IMG/VR virus record: IMGVR_UViG_3300035703_000079
Location: 4,011 to 68,010 of that record
DNA: 64,000 nt
Direction: 5' to 3' (one strand)
Source of the DNA: a virus
Shown here: positions 37,123 to 44,503 of the stretch, piece by piece
Layout of the letters: every line of letters begins with the position of its first letter
Position numbering within the stretch: the first letter of the stretch is position 1
The notes under the pieces: model-generated
Databases searched by the model: none
What the model was told of the DNA's origin: nothing
Seen by the model: the letters and a program-made list of their open reading frames with translations, nothing else
Position numbers and translations under genes: made by a program

Positions 37123-37524
37123 TTACAAGTCTTTCAATCTCTCAATTACATCCTTTGTCGTATGCCCGTCGAAGGGCGGGGCTTTGTCCAATATGTCATT
37201 GTGTGGAAAATCATCCCACATCTCAATCGGGAGATGAAAGGAGATTTGCCTGCCTGATTCTTGATTTATCCCAGCAAGGAAATATCCCTCAAGCTCAACC
37301 CCATTCGGGTGGCGTTTTGAGCGCCATAGAAAGTCATTGCCGGAAAAAATATACTCACCATACGCCGCACTAATCGCCGCACTAATCGCCGCACACAGCG
37401 CCACAAACAAAGCGTTCCTCGTTTCATACAACTCCTCGAAGGAATGAAAGCCATCGGATAGTTGCGCCCGGTCCTCGGAGGGTAGGGCGTCGATAAAGCG
37501 TTGGACGGTGGATGTTGGTTCCAT
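37123..37524 (-). CDS. WDGH-domain-like phage protein
   Basis: SDGFHSFEELY..R..LF, QISFHLP and FDGHT motifs; start at ATG 37524. Confidence 0.7.
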   Translation of the reverse strand: MEPTSTVQRFIDALPSEDRAQLSDGFHSFEELYETRNALFVALCAAISAAISAAYGEYIFSGNDFLWRSKRHPNGVELEGYFLAGINQESGRQISFHLPIEMWDDFPHNDILDKAPPFDGHTTKDVIERLKDL

Positions 37525-37637
37525 ATTGTGTTTTGTTTGAAATTCCCGGCTATTACGGATTCCCGAAGGAAGCGTGAGTTTCGCAATTCGATGCCCCGCC
37601 CATTTGCGCATTGTTAAGAGGCGTGGCGGGGGACTTG

Positions 37638-37709
37638 TGGACGGGAAGGGACTCGAACCCTTAGCTTTCGGAATCGTGCCGAATATGTTACCAATTACAC
37701 CACATATCC
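37638..37709 (-). tRNA. Non-canonical or pseudo tRNA (anticodon loop CACGATT, nominal CGA)
   Basis: GGATATG TG GTGT-AATTGGTA-ACAT A TTCGG-CACGATT-CCGAA AGCT AAGGG-TTCGAGT-CCCTT CCCGTCC A. Perfect T and anticodon arms, two acceptor mismatches, A33, no encoded CCA. Confidence 0.65.
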
Positions 37710-37861
37710 ATTTTTTAAGAACACTTTGCCTTTCAGCGATGCCCCGACGTTGTACTTTCCTCCATTCGTCGGGGTGGTACCCCTCTTTCGAGATCAATGC
37801 AAAAGTACCCCCCTTGCCCCATCTCAACAAACTATTATCTTTGACCCAAACGAAACACCCC

Positions 37862-38143
37862 ATGAAATACCTCATTTTCTCGATAATCGTTTTAACCGGG
37901 TGCCACGAAGCCCGCATCAAACAACTAGAAAAACAAGATTCCCTCAAAACCGAACGACAATTCCTGCTTGAAGCCTATGTCGGGGCGCAGTCCGAACGAA
38001 TCGACTCCCTCGAATCCGCCATTTACGCACAAGGACAAGGGCTTGTCTATCTGGATTCTATCGTTCAAGAACGCAAGTTCAAGCGGGACCGCTGGGGCAA
38101 AGCCGGGGCGTTTATCGGGGGTGTTATTAAGGCGGTGAAATGA
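37862..38143 (+). CDS. Lipoprotein, putative spanin
   Basis: Lipobox VLTGC, coiled coil, Gly-rich hydrophobic C-terminus; overlaps the endolysin start; TATCTTTG promoter upstream. Confidence 0.6.
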   Translation: MKYLIFSIIVLTGCHEARIKQLEKQDSLKTERQFLLEAYVGAQSERIDSLESAIYAQGQGLVYLDSIVQERKFKRDRWGKAGAFIGGVIKAVK

Positions 38144-38592
38144 GCTTCTTCAAAATAACCGAGCTTGTCCCGCAGGCCACCTATCAGGAGTTCGGGGAGG
38201 ATTCCATCCAATTCCTGCACCCCGACCTTATTCCGTCCCTAAACGCCCTGCGGGAGAAACTCGGGTATGGCCTGATTGCAAACAATTGGGATTCCGGTGG
38301 TACATTCAACTTCCGGGGGTATCGCCCGGATTGGTACAAGGGCGGTGCGCCACGTTCCCTGCATCGCAAGGGGATGGCCATTGACTTCCACGGGGCCGGG
38401 GTGCCCATGAAACAGCTATGTATTGACATCTGGCAACTCCGGGATTGGATACCGGAAAACACGGCGTTCCACCGGATTGAATCCTTTGAGGTTACGGCTC
38501 GGAAAAACAGGCGTGGGGAGATTGTTTCGGGTTGGTGTCACCTAGACATGGGAGGCCCTAAGCCGAAGGAATTGGTGGTGTTTATGCCATAA
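38140..38592 (+). CDS. Endolysin, peptidase M15-like
   Basis: RGYR, SLHRKGMAIDF and WCHLD zinc-peptidase motifs. Confidence 0.8.
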   Translation: MSFFKITELVPQATYQEFGEDSIQFLHPDLIPSLNALREKLGYGLIANNWDSGGTFNFRGYRPDWYKGGAPRSLHRKGMAIDFHGAGVPMKQLCIDIWQLRDWIPENTAFHRIESFEVTARKNRRGEIVSGWCHLDMGGPKPKELVVFMP

Positions 38593-38782
38593 AAAAGCCC
38601 CGGATATTACTCGGGGCCCTTCCAAATCCTCTTAGCGACTCGCCAAGCGGCGCGGGGTCCAATTCTTGCTCCGTGGAAGTCCCGGAAGACAATCCGGACA
38701 AAGAGCCAAAGGGCGTTTAACATAGGTTTTATGGTTTAGGCCCCACCGTTTTGGCAGGGCTGGAGTTGCGTTTAGCGAATTG

Positions 38783-39085
38783 TTATAAGCAATTGCTAAG
38801 AACCTGCTTCCAATTGAGTTTTTCGCCACAATAAGGGCAGTAAACAAATCTACTTAAATAACCTTTTCTGCCATCTACTATTTGACTTTTAGTTTGTGGT
38901 TCTCCATTCAATAAACCATACTTTTTAAAAGTCGGCTGAATATTTACAATCTTTTCTACTTCAAAATCAATAGTAGATTTGTTTACTTTTTCTCCACTAA
39001 GAAATCCTACCAAGCAATCGCAACTGCTTATAACAGCAGTCTTGCGTAATGCGGGGTTCTGTGGTTTATCAATCTTTTGTCCCAT
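38783..39085 (-). CDS. Cassette gene, Zn-ribbon-like protein
   Basis: CDC and YCPYCG motifs; N-terminus NPALRKTAVISS is encoded by the repeat arm. Confidence 0.65.
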   Translation of the reverse strand: MGQKIDKPQNPALRKTAVISSCDCLVGFLSGEKVNKSTIDFEVEKIVNIQPTFKKYGLLNGEPQTKSQIVDGRKGYLSRFVYCPYCGEKLNWKQVLSNCL

Positions 39086-39163
39086 AATTGAATATTTGTG
39101 CTTTAACAAAGTGTAGTGCATTTTAAGCCCGCACTAACGCAAGGCTGCGAAACGTTACAGGCA
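39025..39163 (+). repeat. attC-like site 1
   Basis: tgcttaTAACagcagtcttgcgtaatgcggg ... cccgcactaacgcaaggctgcgaaacGTTAcaggca. Confidence 0.8.
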
Positions 39164-39167
39164 AGTG

Positions 39168-39884
39168 TTACCGACCTGCTACGATTTGAAAGTATCTATC
39201 TTTTAATGCTCTTAAATAAATATCATTGGGAATACCGTAGTTGCCTATTGCCCACATATCATTAAATTCTACAACGACATTCTCATTGCTTTCTAAAACA
39301 GCAATATCAACCGTGTAAGCACAAGGAAATTTGCCTTTATTATTAGCGATAACCGTCAAAGCATATTCATAATTTGGAGAAACTATAAACTCACCAGAGT
39401 AATTTCTTGCATCAATAAGTTTGTCCTTATGCACATATAAACGCCATTCACTAACAATCTTACTATTGAATACATCATAAGCCATTACTTTAGTTTCAGG
39501 TGGTAAATTGGATAAGCAAGAGTATTGCATACCATCAAGAATTAAACCTGTAAACAGTTTTATCTCAATTGGCTTAACAAATAACTTACTGCCATTTGCA
39601 ACTCTTTTATGAGCATCTTCAAGTGTAATTATCTCACAATCTCTATTTGAGTTTATAGGTAATCTTACGTCATCTAATCCAATTCTCTTGAAAACCTCTC
39701 TCATAAATTCAGTTGAACCTACAAATAAGCTTTTCTTGATAAGCATATCAAACTTACCACTTGCAACTTCTTCAAAAGATGTTAAACGATAATCCATAGC
39801 GTTATCAATTGCACCATATAATGCACAAGAGCAATCAAAATGATGTGCTAATGTTCTTTCTGTATTTGACTGTATATAAATCAT
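39168..39884 (-). CDS. Cassette gene, ATP-grasp protein (DUF4343/R2K-like)
   Basis: LFVKP..KLFTG, SEWRLYV, YTVDIAV and VVEFNDMWAIGNYG motifs. Confidence 0.8.
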   Translation of the reverse strand: MIYIQSNTERTLAHHFDCSCALYGAIDNAMDYRLTSFEEVASGKFDMLIKKSLFVGSTEFMREVFKRIGLDDVRLPINSNRDCEIITLEDAHKRVANGSKLFVKPIEIKLFTGLILDGMQYSCLSNLPPETKVMAYDVFNSKIVSEWRLYVHKDKLIDARNYSGEFIVSPNYEYALTVIANNKGKFPCAYTVDIAVLESNENVVVEFNDMWAIGNYGIPNDIYLRALKDRYFQIVAGR

Positions 39885-39906
39885 AATTTGTTTATTAACC
39901 CACACC

Positions 39907-40045
39907 TGCCTGTAACATCGGTTTGCCGCAAGGCGGGGTTCATTTCTTCGTTTGACATTGTGTTGTTATTTAAAAGTTAGTAATTCTAATCAAGTTCTGT
40001 GGTTAAATACCCGCCCTGACGGCAAGCCGAGAACCGTTATGGGCA
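39907..40045 (+). repeat. attC-like site 2
   Basis: tgcctgTAACatcggtttgccgcaaggcggg ... cccgccctgacggcaagccgagaaccGTTAtgggca. Confidence 0.8.
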
Positions 40046-40047
40046 AT

Positions 40048-40296
40048 TTAAAACCGACAATCAAAAAGATGGTCAATTATGTCTAACATTTCATCAAATG
40101 TTTTTGAAATTTGTAAAACTTCATCACAATCATTTGTATTATAAGCACACCATTTATTTTCCTGTTTCCTGCTATAATCATAATCAAACTCTTTTATTTC
40201 ATATCCTCGATAAATAAATAAACGATTTGCTAACAGCGGTTTTGTGCTATTGCCGTTTTGGTTAATAATTTGAACGTTGTTTTTTTCTTCAATCAT
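40048..40296 (-). CDS. Cassette gene, hypothetical protein
   Basis: Starts in the loop of site 3; NGNSTKPLLANR is encoded by the repeat arm. Confidence 0.6.
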   Translation of the reverse strand: MIEEKNNVQIINQNGNSTKPLLANRLFIYRGYEIKEFDYDYSRKQENKWCAYNTNDCDEVLQISKTFDEMLDIIDHLFDCRF

Positions 40297-40365
40297 TTGT
40301 CTTAAATTTAAAAGTTAGTGTGTGTTTTTTCGGCAACATCACAAAGCCACATAACGTTATGCACA
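40226..40365 (+). repeat. attC-like site 3
   Basis: tttgcTAACagcggttttgtgctattgccg ... cggcaacatcacaaagccacataacGTTAtgcaca. Confidence 0.8.
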
Positions 40366-40368
40366 AAG

Positions 40369-40659
40369 CTAATAAAGCGTTTCCATATCAGACGAAAAGT
40401 CTCTAACATAATCATTTATATAATCAAAATTGACCATATCTCTAAAAGGATTTTCGCTATCAAATTCTATTTTAGCACCCACCAATTGAAGTTGCTGAAC
40501 ATGAATTACGTGCATTAACAATCTGATTGCTTCGTGTTTATCCATTTTGTCAAGCAACCTTATTGTTTGGTGCATTTCTTCACAGTAGTGGATATTGTCA
40601 GCTTGAACTCCCATGTGGTTCAACCCAATTATTTGCTTGCATAATTCTTTTAATTCCAT
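40369..40659 (-). CDS. Cassette gene, hypothetical protein
   Basis: AT-rich 96-aa ORF; upstream lies a degenerate repeat half (aaacttagtgctgatagtccgcccagcac...gcgtta). Confidence 0.6.
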   Translation of the reverse strand: MELKELCKQIIGLNHMGVQADNIHYCEEMHQTIRLLDKMDKHEAIRLLMHVIHVQQLQLVGAKIEFDSENPFRDMVNFDYINDYVRDFSSDMETLY

Positions 40660-40711
40660 TTCGTTTTCAAATTAAACTTAGTGCTGATAGTCCGCCCAGC
40701 ACTTTTAGGCG

Positions 40712-40975
40712 TTAATCAATCAGTCTCTCAAAATTTGCATTTACCCAATCCCACGCTTTATTCAGGTCAGCATCCGTAACCTTATAGCCATCGGGACCGG
40801 ATACTTCAAGCGAAATAATCTGGCATTCACGCTCCATTACTCCAGCATCAAAGCCTTGTTCCCCATGGTACTCATAGGACCCAATGCCTGACATTCCGGT
40901 TTCAATCACCTCAATTTCGCCGGAAACTTCGAGGTTTAGTTCGGGGATGTAGTAGGATTCGAATTCGTGGCTCAT
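40712..40975 (-). CDS. Hypothetical protein
   Basis: GIGSYEYHG motif common in small phage proteins; ATGA-coupled. Confidence 0.6.
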   Translation of the reverse strand: MSHEFESYYIPELNLEVSGEIEVIETGMSGIGSYEYHGEQGFDAGVMERECQIISLEVSGPDGYKVTDADLNKAWDWVNANFERLID

Positions 40976-41136
40976 ACATTCTCTTCGCTTATCTCCTTAC
41001 ACAATTCAATCAAGGCCCGGGCGAACTCCTGCTCACGCTCGGACAGCGATTCGATGCCTTTGTCCCTTAGTGCCGTCTGGCAGTCCTGAAGGTCCACAAA
41101 GGTGTTCTCGAATCGGGTGTAGGTCATGTTGCTCAT
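40972..41136 (-). CDS. Small hypothetical protein
   Basis: MSNMTYTRFENTFVDLQDC; ATG at the box+47 position. Confidence 0.65.
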   Translation of the reverse strand: MSNMTYTRFENTFVDLQDCQTALRDKGIESLSEREQEFARALIELCKEISEENV

Positions 41137-42536: not shown

Positions 42537-43220
42537 TTATCCCTTGTCGTTTGTAGAAATCCCCTCGACAATCGGCCCGGTTTGCTCGTTGGTTGAACCG
42601 AAACCCCCGATGCGTTCGTTGGTTAAAACCGGGATGCAGGCAGGTCTTTCAACCTTTGAGAATACCCCCTGAGCAATTCGTTCTCCCCGTTTGCATCGGA
42701 ATGTATCTTCGCCCAAATTGATTAGCAGAACCTTGACCTCCAAAGCAAAATCTGCATCCACAGTCCCCGGGCTATTCAGCACGGTGATTCCATGCTTAAA
42801 AGCATTCCCGGACCTTGGTCGGATTTGCAGTTCTGTATCGGCTGGCATATTGTGAACGAAGATGCCCGTAGAAACCAGCATACGCTTCATTGGGCGCAAT
42901 TCAATGTCCTGGTTACAGGCAATATCAAACCCCGCACTTCCGCTTGTCTGGTAGGCTGGAATGAGGTCTGAGGGGTGCGTGAGGTGGAAGGGGTTTGGAT
43001 CGAAAATATCAAACTCCGGGACGTCCAACCCTTCGGCTGCAATCTCTTTATTGCCAAAACAGTCAATATAATCCGGGTATTCCATTGGTTCTTCTTTGGT
43101 CGGCAATTCCCCGCTTGACCACCAAGTATACCCATCCGCTTCCAGCATGGGGGCAATCTTGTTCCATTCTTCGTTGTTTTCCACCCGAACGGAAAAGGGT
43201 GGTTTTGGAAGTGTTTTCAT
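42537..43220 (-). CDS. dut: Trimeric dUTPase with an N-terminal extra domain
   Basis: GSAGFDI, QIRPRSG, NSPGTVDAD, GERIAQ and RIGGFGST (motifs I-V). Confidence 0.92.
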   Translation of the reverse strand: MKTLPKPPFSVRVENNEEWNKIAPMLEADGYTWWSSGELPTKEEPMEYPDYIDCFGNKEIAAEGLDVPEFDIFDPNPFHLTHPSDLIPAYQTSGSAGFDIACNQDIELRPMKRMLVSTGIFVHNMPADTELQIRPRSGNAFKHGITVLNSPGTVDADFALEVKVLLINLGEDTFRCKRGERIAQGVFSKVERPACIPVLTNERIGGFGSTNEQTGPIVEGISTNDKG

Positions 43221-43225
43221 TTTGT

Positions 43226-44503
43226 TTACTGAATTAAAACCTCTCTCCATCTGTTGTTAGCCTGATCATTCCCCTCTACCACCACCGAACGAACTCTTCG
43301 GAAAATCCGAACAGTTGTATCAGGTTTGCTGGTTGTTGCTGAGAAAACCACAACCCCATCGGCCAGAACTCTAACCGGCTGAATTGGACTGCCCCATCGG
43401 TTATTTGAAAAGAACCCGGAAACAACCCTGACCGAATTAACCCGCACCGAATCGGAATAGGCAATGGTAACGGTACTCCTTCCGGTCGTTACCCATCTGG
43501 TGTCGGTGTTCCCGTCGTTTACGTTGGATGTGGTTCCCGAATGAGTCGTGCCTGAAAATGTCCAGGTTGTTGTAATGGGCGTTGGTGGGGGTGTATTGCC
43601 GGGCGTGAAGGTCGGTAGGGTGGAGTAGAATAGGGACTGATTCAGAACCGCTACAATAGCCGGGTGAATCTTCCAGGACTGGGAGTTCCAAAAATGGCCA
43701 TAACCCATAATATCCGCTTCGTGCCGCCTGGAAGTAGTGCGGCATAGTGGGGAAGGGGTACAAGTGCGTTCTCCGGCCCAGGTTGAATCAAGTCTTCCCA
43801 ATTGTCTTCCGTTCTTATCCAGCCAAACACAACAGTTGAAAGCATGGCTCAGGCCCAAATTATGCCCGATTTCATGCACAATGTTGTATTCCAGCTTGCC
43901 GGGTGTAGTGGTGTTCCCCATCGGAACAAATCCCATACCAAGTACCGCCCATTTTGCACTGGTTACTGAACCTCTCGACAAATAAGCCGACCCGCCAATG
44001 TTTTTGCCGGAAAGTCGCAATTTGAAAATGGTAGGGTCAAGGGTTGGATATTCGGTTGTCCATGCGTACAGCATGGGTGTTGCGGCTGTGGCTCGATAGG
44101 TTTGATCGGATCGGGTCCTGATTAGGATAGAAACAATCTCCATGCGAATGCCATATCTTGGCTCACATACCCGGTTTATCAAGGCAATACGGCTACGAAT
44201 GGCCTGTTCGGCACTATCCTTATACAATGCCCGGAAAAGCGTATCAGCTTCAATGTAGAGCCTGATTACCCGGTTAGGTCGGTAGTTTGGGTCCCAGAAG
44301 TCGGGAATGCTTGCCAGTCGCATGGCAATACGTGGTTCGGCTGTGGTATCAATTTCACAGGTAGGGTTGATTTTGACCGAATCTGTGAAAGTTTGTTGGA
44401 CGGTTCGTTCGGGGGTTGGTTGGCAGCCGATAAGCAAAAAAGCCAAGCCGAAACAAGCTACCCATAACAGGGAAAAGCCAATGAATTTTACAAGATTTTT
44501 CAT
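43226..44503 (-). CDS. Lipoprotein zinc metallopeptidase (metzincin/reprolysin-like) with a C-terminal discoidin/F5-8-like domain
   Basis: Lipobox LLIGC; HEIGHNLGLSH; Met-turn DIMGY; DGNTDTRW. Confidence 0.8.
   Translation of the reverse strand: MKNLVKFIGFSLLWVACFGLAFLLIGCQPTPERTVQQTFTDSVKINPTCEIDTTAEPRIAMRLASIPDFWDPNYRPNRVIRLYIEADTLFRALYKDSAEQAIRSRIALINRVCEPRYGIRMEIVSILIRTRSDQTYRATAATPMLYAWTTEYPTLDPTIFKLRLSGKNIGGSAYLSRGSVTSAKWAVLGMGFVPMGNTTTPGKLEYNIVHEIGHNLGLSHAFNCCVWLDKNGRQLGRLDSTWAGERTCTPSPLCRTTSRRHEADIMGYGHFWNSQSWKIHPAIVAVLNQSLFYSTLPTFTPGNTPPPTPITTTWTFSGTTHSGTTSNVNDGNTDTRWVTTGRSTVTIAYSDSVRVNSVRVVSGFFSNNRWGSPIQPVRVLADGVVVFSATTSKPDTTVRIFRRVRSVVVEGNDQANNRWREVLIQ

Follow-up and report, generated by a model that had tools for sequence, protein, structure and literature searches.

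An AT-rich island in the genome of a freshwater phage is a real integron-type gene cassette array, belonging to a non-canonical family, and very probably represents an integrase-less array of four cassettes operating by the mechanism proposed below. It occupies positions 38782-40714 of the stretch of DNA analyzed here (64,000 nucleotides of the 68-kb phage record IMGVR_UViG_3300035703_000079, hereafter the window) and lies at the end of a leftward operon. An earlier reading of this sequence on its own had proposed that the phage carries integron-like cassettes which it captures and shuffles; the crossovers recovered by comparison across phages map to the GTTA core of the repeats, as that proposal implied, and the cassette content differs among natural variants of the same phage.

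Architecture of the array

The island has a GC content of 34-37% within a phage of ~50% GC (0.344 and 0.368 across 39001-41000, against about 0.50 in the surroundings), a difference that may be a sign of foreign origin. It is built of four minus-strand genes (g1-g4) with three imperfect palindromes (sites B, C and D) between them, and can be parsed into the following units:

38782-38796, plus strand: backbone-to-array junction, a GTTA core and the first 11 nt of cassette 1, with no palindrome on its left
38783-39154, plus strand: cassette 1 (g1 and site B), with 16-nt complementarity between its ends, position 11 being A against G
39155-40036, plus strand: cassette 2 (g2 and site C), with 15-nt complementarity between its ends, position 11 being A against G
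40037-40356, plus strand: cassette 3 (g3 and site D), ends no longer complementary (4/12)
40357-40711, plus strand: cassette 4 (g4 and a site remnant), with a leader, an ATG, a short hairpin at 40680-40703 and then GTTA at 40711-40714

All genes are antisense to the orientation of the sites, just as had been described from the sequence. Cassette 3 looks decayed or rearranged; its left flank is also found in loci L034 and L037. The degenerate fourth site that had been placed at 40638-40714 did not hold up: this region neither forms a palindrome nor matches the covariance model described below, and is only a remnant, with a related leader and ATG and a GTTA core at its end. The segment 40654-40702 is 90% identical to the leader immediately left of a full site in L024, and the terminal core contains the stop codon of the backbone gene g5.

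The 68-kb phage record encodes no tyrosine recombinase detectable with the TIGR02249 and PF00589 models and no Y1 transposase detectable with PF01797. Provided that the sites are counted as attC, the three sites within 1.4 kb and the lack of a nearby integrase give the configuration termed CALIN, for which two or more neighboring attC sites are required in a region devoid of an integrase.

Structure of the palindromic sites

The three palindromes, for which outer limits of 39025-39163, 39907-40045 and 40226-40365 had been given, are indeed present and measure 127-129 nt from the TAAC core to the GTTA core:

39031-39157, plus strand: site B, attC-like imperfect palindrome, scoring 116.5 bits with the model on the plus strand versus 19.7 on the minus strand
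39913-40039, plus strand: site C, attC-like imperfect palindrome, 117.2 bits, fold z-scores of -2.9 and -3.3
40231-40359, plus strand: site D, attC-like palindrome, 148 bits

A covariance model (R1) built from the window sites matches sites B, C and D and nothing else in the 64-kb window, and identifies another 119 copies across 11 Flavobacterium phage genomes (28 in three of these phages and 91 in eight more), in all of which the sites lie on the strand opposite to the genes. Site D is 81-91% identical to sites in the Flavobacterium phages 11b, snusmum6-1 and filifjonk9-1 and in IMG/VR and MAG contigs, and an exact 22-mer of it recurs in 46 IMG/VR and 5 MAG contigs. Site C shows 79% identity to sites in L019/L046.

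Folding of both strands gives a long interrupted hairpin in each case. On the plus strand TAAC is followed by a single unpaired base and then by stems of 11 bp and 6 bp, with an internal loop between them; the 6-bp stem leads into a loop and the return arms, after which come a 5-nt unpaired spacer and GTTA. Both TAAC and GTTA are present in sites B, C and D and invariant in 38/38 distinct sites, so that the palindromes, like attC sites, are bounded by AAC...GTT cores. Their secondary structure is conserved through compensatory changes, which affect 9/17 pairs in the six-sequence seed alignment. Across the 38 distinct sites 96.2% of the cells are paired as against 65.3% in shuffles (0/500 shuffles being as high, with slid controls at 32-41%), and double changes number 216 versus 59 in shuffles and are seen in 16/21 pairs, all these counts coming from alignments fitted to the model itself.

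In other respects the sites depart from canonical attC. The wider canonical core consensus is RYYYAAC / GTTRRRY, which they follow only loosely, and the arrangement of an R box, a roughly symmetric unpaired central spacer and an L box with extrahelical bases on R''/L'' was not found in them. Instead their spacer is asymmetric, with 1 nt on one side and 5 nt on the other, and the extra bases are those next to GTTA, whereas the canonical extrahelical bases are on the R''/L'' arm, opposite to the arm that bears the extra bases here. A T.G in the stem is conserved in 31/38 distinct sites, and since each strand has one conserved wobble and one conserved mismatch the folding strand cannot be named.

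Complementarity between the two ends of a cassette, which had been noted over 10 bp, proved to be longer at 15-16 nt: 38781-38796 pairs with 39020-39035 (16 nt, 94%) and 39154-39168 with 39902-39916 (15 nt, 93%), the sole mismatch in both being position 11 counted from the G of GTTA. The third such pair (40036 onwards with the bases up to 40234) is not complementary (4/12). When the 11 phage arrays and the window are taken together, 100 of 110 adjacent site pairs, many of them common to related phages, show matches at no fewer than 9 of the 12 flank positions. The start of a cassette is likewise complementary to its own inverse core in 84/113 chromosomal cassettes (at least 8/11 positions), and 76 of these 84 have the A/G mismatch at flank position 11.

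Chromosomal arrays and a candidate recombinase

The site family is also matched in 120/151 Flavobacterium genomes and in 40/151 genomes sampled across the Bacteroidota. Three complete Flavobacterium chromosomes contain one-strand arrays of 30-55 kb with dozens of cassettes, the cargo of which includes defense genes coding for ApeA and GmrSD-like proteins. In five of the seven arrays examined (G001, G002, G003, G039 and G093) homologous XerA/IntI-like tyrosine recombinases of 345-347 amino acids, with 42-74% identity, are encoded 1.2-2 kb upstream of the array and in the same orientation; in G151 the homolog lies 0.46 Mb from the array, and in G015 a homolog with 37-39% identity is in divergent orientation. 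The recombinase co-occurs with the sites (81/120 site-positive versus 7/31 other genomes, Fisher p = 9e-6), and 39 of the 120 site-positive genomes have no homolog at E<=1e-50. Downstream of the recombinase gene by ~100-130 nt, G002, G003 and G093 share a conserved attI-like junction motif, followed by GTT and the start of the first cassette; in its place the window has only the bare GTTA junction.

The array-adjacent recombinase scores 206.7 bits with the integron integrase model TIGR02249, in two stretches and below the cut-off of 265, and 221.5 bits against a cut-off of 220 with NF040815 ("tyrosine recombinase/integron integrase"); its best and continuous alignment is to the archaeal XerA, the best solved relative. 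No clear IntI-specific insertion was found in this enzyme. A host or unseen tyrosine recombinase had been proposed to drive the phage cassettes, and these results supply a candidate host family beside the chromosomal arrays, with its adjacency to and co-occurrence with the sites being what points to the XerA/IntI-like recombinase as the putative acting enzyme.

One could instead suppose that the sites are ordinary attC sites moved by a classical IntI of the host, with the Xer-like recombinase next to the arrays being unrelated. Precedent for this exists in the description by Qi et al. (2023, PMC9892861), wherein IntI1 recombined 5/6 virulent-phage attC sites with attI1, including one of the Polaribacter phage P12002L. 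By eye, short sites in the latter phage resemble the present ones in their build (TAAC-A-stem...spacer-GTTA), and its methyltransferase genes lie on the strand opposite to them; moreover, one Flavobacterium genome does encode a true IntI (308.6 bits). However, this is the only one above the cut-off among 301 Flavobacterium genomes searched, as against sites in 120/151, and neither the build of the sites, unlike that of canonical attC, nor the co-oriented recombinase in 5/7 arrays, with its conserved junction motif and its co-occurrence with the sites, fits such a scenario, which we consider unlikely.

Crossover point and natural variants

In the phage comparison 173 ends of blocks with at least 96% identity fall within 40 nt of a core, of which 159 are at GTTA and 14 at TAAC; 91 more block ends are far from any site. 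Among pairs of D-type sites 37 share only the left flank, five only the right, one both and 903 neither, and each palindrome travels with the gene on its left. Cassette order differs between filifjonk9-1 and snusmum6-1. In seven phages the backbone is identical up to the G of GTTA and then continues into seven different first cassettes, and it is at this backbone-proximal junction that the alignments show new cassettes apparently entering.

Variants of the same phage in public metagenomes, compared as assembled contigs only, reveal comparable changes. In contigs from two different studies (3677 nt in run X4 and 2167 nt in run X5) cassettes 1 and 2 are exactly absent, with 38781 joined to 40036, a joint that skips 1254 nt and has 5 ambiguous letters. 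In another study a 5128-nt contig (run X3) has 718 other bases in their place, between 38785 and 40035. The start of cassette 1 is preceded by four different left contexts in runs X2-X5. These breaks fall at GTTA cores, the resolution of the crossover being limited to the shared 4-7 nt. The aligned breakpoints thus place the predicted strand exchange at the GTTA core and, as in attC recombination, at the G|TT of the 3' core, with the cassette keeping its own site.

These breakpoints bear on two explanations that dispense with a cassette-type recombination. Under the first, the repeats would be regulatory modules like the PeSLs of T4-type phages, and the genes would be shuffled by homologous or microhomology-based recombination, with no site-specific enzyme. 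As portrayed in PMC2839356 and PMC4122927, PeSLs are repeats made up of a stem-loop and expression signals, which lie on either side of small accessory genes in variable regions and are tied to gene shuffling between related phages, for which homologous exchange was proposed. The resemblance is considerable: the sites described here have a conserved AT-rich leader and start codons in their loops, lie on either side of small accessory genes in an early region that is variable, and occur in phages with general recombination proteins (ERF in 11b and a "recombination protein" in filifjonk9-1). Yet homologous exchange could occur anywhere within a repeat, whereas the breakpoints here concentrate at a 4-5-nt core at one end of it (159 versus 14), and the left junction of the window is used precisely despite having only ~5 nt in common with the right end of site C. 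Nor does homologous exchange predict that the variable 11-nt cassette ends should be mutually complementary with a fixed mismatch. In addition, unlike PeSLs as described in those studies, the same sites occur in host chromosomes in arrays with a dedicated recombinase and junction. Hence, we view the PeSL-like explanation as highly unlikely.

The second explanation, that the repeats are MITE-type elements and that genes and repeats do not move as units, is scarcely credible. It could account for the terminal inverted arms of the sites and for the TA on each side, which is readable as a target duplication, and a survey (PMC11602168), whose MITEs could be compared by their description only, reports many MITEs common to Flavobacterium genomes and their phages. 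But a MITE would be mobile as the repeat alone and be flanked by a direct target duplication, while what varies here as a unit, by presence, absence or replacement, is a gene with its site, from GTTA to GTTA, and never the palindrome alone. Furthermore, the flanks of the sites are reverse complements across the gene rather than direct repeats, all copies within an array have a single orientation, and the Y1 transposase model has no match in the phage record.

Inverted genes and site-supplied start codons

In the chromosomal arrays the longest ORF is on the plus strand of the site in 100/113 cassettes, which is the canonical orientation, the gene preceding its site on the top strand; all phage cassettes, including those of the window, are inverted relative to it. 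The reading frames of the island are:

38783-39121, minus strand: g1, 112 amino acids from the ATG at 39121 or 100 from the ATG at 39085
39168-39884, minus strand: g2, 238 amino acids, an R2K-clade ATP-grasp protein (PF18299, 82.7 bits; phrog_7313)
39881-39958, minus strand: leader ORF of 25 codons, starting in the loop of site C and reading through the site arm and core
40048-40296, minus strand: g3, 82 amino acids, the first ~22 codons being encoded by site D
40369-40659, minus strand: g4, 96 amino acids

No family match was recovered in profile searches for g1 and g4. The remainder of g3, beyond the part encoded by the site, shows 40% identity over 67 amino acids to a gene left of the same type of site in L037. 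The start of g1 is in the loop of site B, with the ATG at 39085 sitting behind an AT-rich leader, and its stop codon (TAA) is inside the core at 38782; the TGA of the leader ORF overlaps the ATG of g2 (ATGA).

The sequence-only reading had held that sites 2 and 3 share an AT-rich leader, that ATGs sit in the repeat loops and that the repeat arms are consequently translated. The leader shared by sites 2 and 3 is an exact 14-nt match (39968 and 40306), and the translated arms are as quoted. The start codons are in the loops as claimed for g3 (40296), g1 (39085 or 39121) and the leader ORF (39958), but as a general property of the family this applies to only 17/53 distinct phage sites, in which the ORF from the loop ATG extends at least 30 codons beyond the site; among D-type sites the corresponding count is 36/40. 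The reading frame through the site into the gene is kept, and the loop of the site probably serves as promoter and translation start.

Proposed mechanism

We propose that a cassette would comprise one gene and one imperfect-palindrome recombination site. With exchange at the GTTA core it would keep the whole of its site and leave only TTA... to its neighbor. Excision is predicted to give a circle in which the ~11 nt that open the cassette would pair with the bases preceding TAAC and lengthen the hairpin by an outer stem of 15-16 bp, with a conserved non-Watson-Crick position. As the phage appears to have no recombinase of its own, the candidate XerA/IntI-like tyrosine recombinase of the host likely acts on its cassettes; in Flavobacterium chromosomes this enzyme is encoded ~100-130 bp upstream of the attI-like junction, with arrays of the same sites coming next. 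In the inverted phage cassettes the gene is on the bottom strand, and the loop of the site contains an AT-rich leader, to which many sites add the ATG; in such loop-ATG cassettes translation would pass through the arm and core of the site before it reaches the gene.

More broadly, the Bacteroidota may own a widespread and unrecognized integron analog, with a XerA-like enzyme devoid of the IntI insertion, its own attI-like junction and long attC-like sites that form an outer stem with a fixed non-Watson-Crick mark. Hosts would use it to bank defense genes, and phages would carry docking arrays that borrow the host enzyme during infection and swap inverted cassettes, with the site acting as promoter, leader and start codon so that any in-frame ORF becomes an expressed counter-defense gene. 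The window would then record the passage of cassettes from Flavobacterium-type phages, which are AT-rich, to an unrelated phage of ~50% GC. For this joint reading taken as a whole, we see the chances as evenly balanced.

Integrons are regarded as nearly absent from the Bacteroidota, and the summary of IntegronFinder 2.0 results (PMC9024848) lists for this phylum no more than In0 elements and a single complete integron, from Salinibacter; the present site family is common in Flavobacterium. If confirmed, these findings would extend integron-type gene capture, with a different enzyme, to a major environmental and host-associated phylum and give a concrete mechanistic account of how the methyltransferase regions of Flavobacterium phages come to be hypervariable. 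They also suggest that hosts and phages share one recombination system for defense and counter-defense genes. Cultures exist of the phages and of host strains LMO6 and LMO9 (PMC7077304), which makes the system directly testable.

Relationship to known systems

Literature searches found neither this site family nor its inverted, site-started genes. Phage CALINs have been published: Qi et al. (PMC9892861), using canonical attC models on 10,705 phage genomes, describe 17 of them, with the word "Flavobacterium" being absent from the main text. In that description they resemble the window in being integrase-less arrays of hairpin sites between accessory genes, there in virulent phages, with a host enzyme presumed to act in trans, and one example is from a Flavobacteriaceae (Polaribacter) phage with DNA methyltransferase cassettes. 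In contrast to the CALINs as described there, the present sites are long, at 127-129 nt from core to core, and combine an asymmetric spacer with a complementary outer stem of 15-16 nt, the genes are all inverted, many of them starting inside the site, and there is a distinct chromosomal platform.

Among sedentary chromosomal integrons is the Vibrio superintegron with its VCR sites. According to the general accounts of this class (PMC8618304, PMC4889954, PMC9024848), such integrons and the arrays described here have in common long arrays in one orientation, one-gene cassettes with near-uniform sites, a recombinase and an insertion junction (in the present arrays a candidate one) at one end, defense cargo, crossover at G|TT and a cassette start complementary to its own inverse core. 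They differ, on the same accounts, in that the recombinase here shows no clear IntI insertion, does not reach the cut-off of the IntI model and is co-directional with the cassettes rather than divergent, and in the build of the site.

With a leader and start codon supplied by the loop, the inverted cassettes would also show recombination sites taking on the role of an expression module in a new way. In class 1 integrons a short ORF in attI1 gives ribosome entry that aids the expression of the cassette gene. There, as here, a site beside the cassette helps express the gene, but in the present arrays the start is on the bottom strand, within the loop that belongs to the attC-like site of the cassette itself, and is either fused in frame with the gene, as in g1, g3 and 36/40 D-type sites, or coupled to it through ATGA, as in g2.

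The AT-rich island and its genes

The window corresponds to bases 4011-68010 of a 68,010-bp IMG/VR virus record bearing direct terminal repeats. Among the genes of the window are those for a portal, a primase/helicase and a DNA methyltransferase, and its GC content of about 0.50 drops to 0.344 and 0.368 across 39001-41000. This island holds four minus-strand genes (g1-g4), separated by attC-like imperfect palindromes (sites B, C and D, each running from TAAC to GTTA) and bordered by genes of the phage backbone:

4592-5815, minus strand, DNA methyltransferase, further away
37123-37947, minus strand, WDGH-domain protein, backbone gene near the array
38140-38592, plus strand, M15-type peptidase gene, convergent, bordering the island on one side
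38783-39121, minus strand, g1, ORF of the island
39031-39157, site B
39168-39884, minus strand, g2, R2K ATP-grasp protein (PF18299)
39913-40039, site C
40048-40296, minus strand, g3, ORF of the island
40231-40359, site D
40369-40659, minus strand, g4, ORF of the island
40712-40975, g5, last gene of a leftward operon, bordering the island on the other side
42537-43250, minus strand, dUTPase with a long N-terminal extension, backbone gene near the array
43226-44503, minus strand, reprolysin-like metallopeptidase, backbone gene near the array

No family in Pfam or PHROGs matched g1, g3, g4 or g5, and the M15 peptidase used as a query for relatives of this phage in IMG/VR returned no match. When g1-g5 were compared by tblastn with all the phage, metagenome-assembled genome (MAG) and chromosomal loci that we fetched, g3 alone matched, with 40% identity over 67 aa to the gene lying left of the same site and flank in one of them (L037). 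Against isolate phages, blastn of the island recovered only site D, which is 81-85% identical in Flavobacterium phages 11b, snusmum6 and filifjonk9-1, and a 46-nt leader, with the gene bodies unmatched. That leader, belonging to the fourth cassette (40657-40702), is 91% identical over 46 nt to LR745206, a 634,780-bp uncultured phage record. Scarcity of Shine-Dalgarno sequences upstream of starts is a Bacteroidota trait. A Shine-Dalgarno-like 4-mer between -20 and -5 precedes only 2 of 43 longer ORFs in the window, and A+T content is 61% in the 30 nt before starts as against 51% overall; the scarcity is weakly consistent with a Bacteroidota-type host.

A family of long attC-like sites

Folding either strand of the window palindromes gave one long interrupted hairpin. 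As a simple arm-alignment scanner missed the relatives of site D (D-type sites), we instead used a covariance model of 21 base pairs (R1), built from six sites, three in the window and three in phages. Its only matches in the window are B, C and D, which score 116-148 bits on the plus strand and at most 20 bits on the reverse strand. A fourth, degenerate site had been proposed from the sequence alone; the segment forms no palindrome and has no R1 match, keeping only the leader, the ATG and a terminal GTTA. With this model, of the kind that the sequence-only reading had proposed building from the three sites, the family could be traced through Flavobacterium phages and Bacteroidota genomes. There are 14 matches in filifjonk9-1, 10 in the first 12 kb of snusmum6-1, 4 in 11b and 91 in eight further Flavobacterium phages, and within each phage the sites all share one strand, the genes being on the other. 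The Polaribacter phage P12002L gave a single weak match (E 0.01); its short sites are by eye of similar build, again with genes on the opposite strand, their membership of the family being a matter of judgement rather than score.

Among 38 distinct sites from the eight further phages, standard pairs fill 96.2% of the pair cells, as against 65.3% after shuffling (none of 500 shuffles as high) and 32-41% with slid partners, and double changes number 216 versus 59 in shuffles, figures that lean toward structure because the alignment was fitted to R1. Compensatory changes were already present at 9 of 17 pairs in the six-sequence MAFFT seed.

Cassettes exchange from core to core

Public metagenome runs were searched with 38300-41100, and contigs from four runs (X2-X5) with about half of the words of this stretch were compared; window parts without contig cover in these runs were excluded from the evidence. 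In two contigs from separate studies, one of 3677 nt (X4) and one of 2167 nt (X5), position 38781 is followed immediately by 40036, so that 1254 nt are skipped, with five letters assignable to either end of the joint. What is missing from these backbones is precisely cassettes 1 and 2, the units carrying g1 and g2, from core to core, the core being the GTTA or TAAC at either end of a site. In X3 a 5128-nt contig matches up to 38785, continues with 718 other letters and resumes at 40035, so that a different insert occupies the slot of cassettes 1 and 2. The first approximately 80 nt of cassette 1 follow four different left contexts in X2-X5, each breaking at 38781/38782, and two of these contexts end in an attC-like 3' arm. 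Being assembled contigs rather than reads, the variants attest the existence of these forms and not their origin.

The same point of exchange is seen in the isolate phages. Blocks of at least 96% identity among ten related phages have 264 distinct ends, of which 173 fall within 40 nt of a core, 159 of these at GTTA as against 14 at TAAC; the other 91 lie elsewhere, mostly outside arrays. Cassette order, which we compared as the sequence-only reading had suggested, is not fixed: two blocks are swapped between filifjonk9-1 and snusmum6-1. With crossovers at GTTA and variants differing from core to core, the integron-like cassette array first read from the sequence is real, and that reading was largely right.

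The unit that moves was indicated by the D-type sites. A 22-mer from site D was found unchanged in 46 contigs of IMG/VR and 5 of MAGs, and pairs of such sites share the left flank only in 37 instances, the right only in 5, both in 1 and neither in 903. The excess of shared left flanks indicates that palindrome and left-hand gene move together, and the 5' end of that gene faces or enters the site. We also considered a canonical arrangement on the minus strand, with a site downstream of each gene; it is ruled out by the breakpoints, the flank sharing and the variant contigs alike. The palindrome is thus taken to accompany the gene whose 5' end it adjoins.

Cassettes 1 and 2, proximal to the backbone, are intact and variable. 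All three variants contain cassettes 3 and 4, whose ends are decayed. This distribution fits entry of new cassettes at the backbone junction. In seven Flavobacterium phages the backbone is identical up to the G of GTTA and is then followed by seven different first cassettes.

An outer stem with a fixed mismatch

The exact 10-bp complementarity initially reported for the cassette ends extends further, to 16 nt at 94% and 15 nt at 93%. Comparing the bases that start at each GTTA with the reverse complement of those ending at the TAAC of the next site, we found a match of at least 9 of 12 in 100 of 110 consecutive pairs, many of these pairs being common to related phages. The match typically extends over 14-15 nt with a single fixed exception at position 11 from the G of GTTA, where the right flank has A and the complemented left flank has G, giving A.C on the plus strand and G.T on the minus strand. 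In the window this mark is seen at 38792 versus 39024 in cassette 1 and at 39164 versus 39906 in cassette 2; the flanks of cassette 3 match at 4 of 12. It is present in loci L005-L015 and L092-L099, and among chromosomal cassettes it is kept in 76 of the 84 whose ends match well. Next to position 11, some cassettes have an additional bulged base. Within the 11-bp stem of the site a T.G wobble on the plus strand (columns 14 and 149 of alignment A4; 39041/39144 in the window) is kept in 31 of 38 distinct sites. With one conserved wobble and one conserved mismatch per strand, the folding or active strand is not readable from sequence.

Inverted genes and starts within the sites

In chromosomal arrays the longest ORF lies on the plus strand of the site in 100 of 113 cassettes, which is the usual integron layout of a gene upstream of its own site. 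In the window and all 11 phages, by contrast, genes lie on the strand opposite to the sites, bearing out the original claim that the phage cassettes are antisense to their repeats.

Read on the gene strand, many site loops contain an A/T-rich leader in which the motif ACTAA recurs, some 18-24 nt ahead of an ATG. The ORF from this ATG stays open for at least 30 codons past the site in 36 of 40 non-duplicate D-type sites, and since at least eight distinct left flanks lie behind such sites, the kept frame is unlikely to be due to chance. D-type sites (L016-L066) encode a conserved N-terminal leader peptide, about 22 aa long with ...GNS(T/S)KPLL at its end, that is fused to unrelated proteins that include N6/N4 and C5 methyltransferase-like sequences. 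Overall, 17 of 53 distinct phage sites have an internal start, and the short sites have none. The proposal that the window genes start inside the repeats holds for g3, which begins within site D, and for g1, which begins within site B, either at 39121 or, following the leader, at 39085; the start in site C belongs instead to a 25-codon ORF, the TGA of which overlaps the g2 ATG. We infer that the site loop may act as a promoter or translation start.

A chromosomal platform with an Xer-like recombinase

Model searches found no match to an integron integrase, a general tyrosine recombinase or a Y1 transposase in the phage record, and no tyrosine recombinase was found in phages 11b, snusmum6-1, filifjonk9-1 and P12002L. 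Sites are common on chromosomes: R1 matched 120 of 151 genomes at E<=0.001 in the genus of a Flavobacterium MAG and 40 of 151 sampled genomes at E<=1e-6 across the phylum. Regions from three complete chromosomes contain one-strand arrays of about 30, 45 and 55 kb. In five genomes (G001, G002, G003, G039, G093) the first detected site is preceded, at a distance of 1.2-2 kb and on the same strand, by a tyrosine recombinase of 345-347 aa that is 42-74% identical between genomes. A homologue is found on the same strand about 0.7-10 kb from the sites listed for seven more (G100, G068, G031, G018, G142, G026, G113); G015 has a 37-39% identical homologue in divergent orientation, and G151 has no recombinase nearby.

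The enzyme, with PF00589 and PF13495 domains, passes NF040815 ('tyrosine recombinase/integron integrase'; 221.5 bits against a cut-off of 220) and falls below the cut-off of the integron integrase model (206.7 against 265 bits, in two stretches). Its best and continuous alignment is with archaeal XerA, while Vibrio IntI4 aligns in two stretches, and it has about 70 extra N-terminal residues. Past its stop codon by about 100-130 nt, G002, G003 and G093 share a motif ending in GTT, and the 11 nt that follow are complementary to the left flank of the first site, position-11 mismatch included; this junction looks like an attI. A copy differing at one or two positions occurs at L017:2900 (plus strand), with a cassette start behind it, on an 11.4-kb contig of the G002 MAG that also has D-type sites and could be either phage or chromosome.

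Sites and recombinase co-occur, the latter being present in 81 of 120 site-positive versus 7 of 31 site-negative genomes (odds ratio 7.1, p = 9e-6), a figure blurred by MAG incompleteness and paralogues. Of 301 genomes searched in the genus, one had a classical IntI above cut-off, at 308.6 bits on a 1.5-kb contig (G231:C174:652-1518, L075). The array-adjacent enzyme is thus the candidate recombinase of the sites; a circular cassette intermediate and an active strand of the sites are likewise presumed.

Relationship to known systems

The arrays resemble integrons in working as cassette arrays. They differ from the canonical form in having neither an IntI-type integrase nor the canonical spacer and extrahelical layout, and, in phages only, in the reversed gene orientation. 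Clusters of attC sites lacking an integrase (CALINs) have been reported in phages: PMC9892861 describes 17 among 10,705 phage genomes, including one with methyltransferase cassettes in P12002L, and recombination by IntI1 of 5 of 6 phage attC sites tested. For Bacteroidetes, IntegronFinder 2.0 reported a single complete integron and otherwise In0 elements only (PMC9024848). A MITE survey notes many repeats common to Flavobacterium genomes and phages (PMC11602168), which may include the present sites. The terms 'palindrom' and 'variable region' are absent from the accessible text of Nilsson et al. 2020 (PMC7077304). In the literature searched we found no description of the long-site family with its Flavobacterium phage and chromosomal arrays, though supplementary tables of PMC9892861 and PMC11602168 may list some; nor of the adjacent Xer-like recombinase and its junction as an integron-like platform, nor of the position-11 mark and starts inside a recombination site. 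From the accounts available, the nearest functional analogue in phages appears to be the PeSL motifs of T4-type phages. The phage array is best filed as a variant of the integron kind, one not found described in the literature searched, supplementary tables aside.

Cargo of the arrays

The Flavobacterium phage arrays (L005, L008-L015) have up to five annotated DNA methyltransferases each, in cassettes that adjoin HTH regulators and many tiny ORFs. A counter-restriction role would fit these methyltransferases; the source paper of these phages ties plating differences to methyltransferase content (PMC7077304). The chromosomal cargo (L088:3740-5155, minus strand; L093:7849-9669; L095:11449-12534; L095:6164-7240; L095:13386-14567; L093:2785-4158) includes an ApeA-type HEPN protein encoded by the first cassette, which adjoins the recombinase; two GmrSD_N-family proteins, classed by PADLOC as HEC-06 and NsnA-like; one protein each of baeRF family 3 and the beta-lactamase fold; and an IS110-family transposase located within the array.
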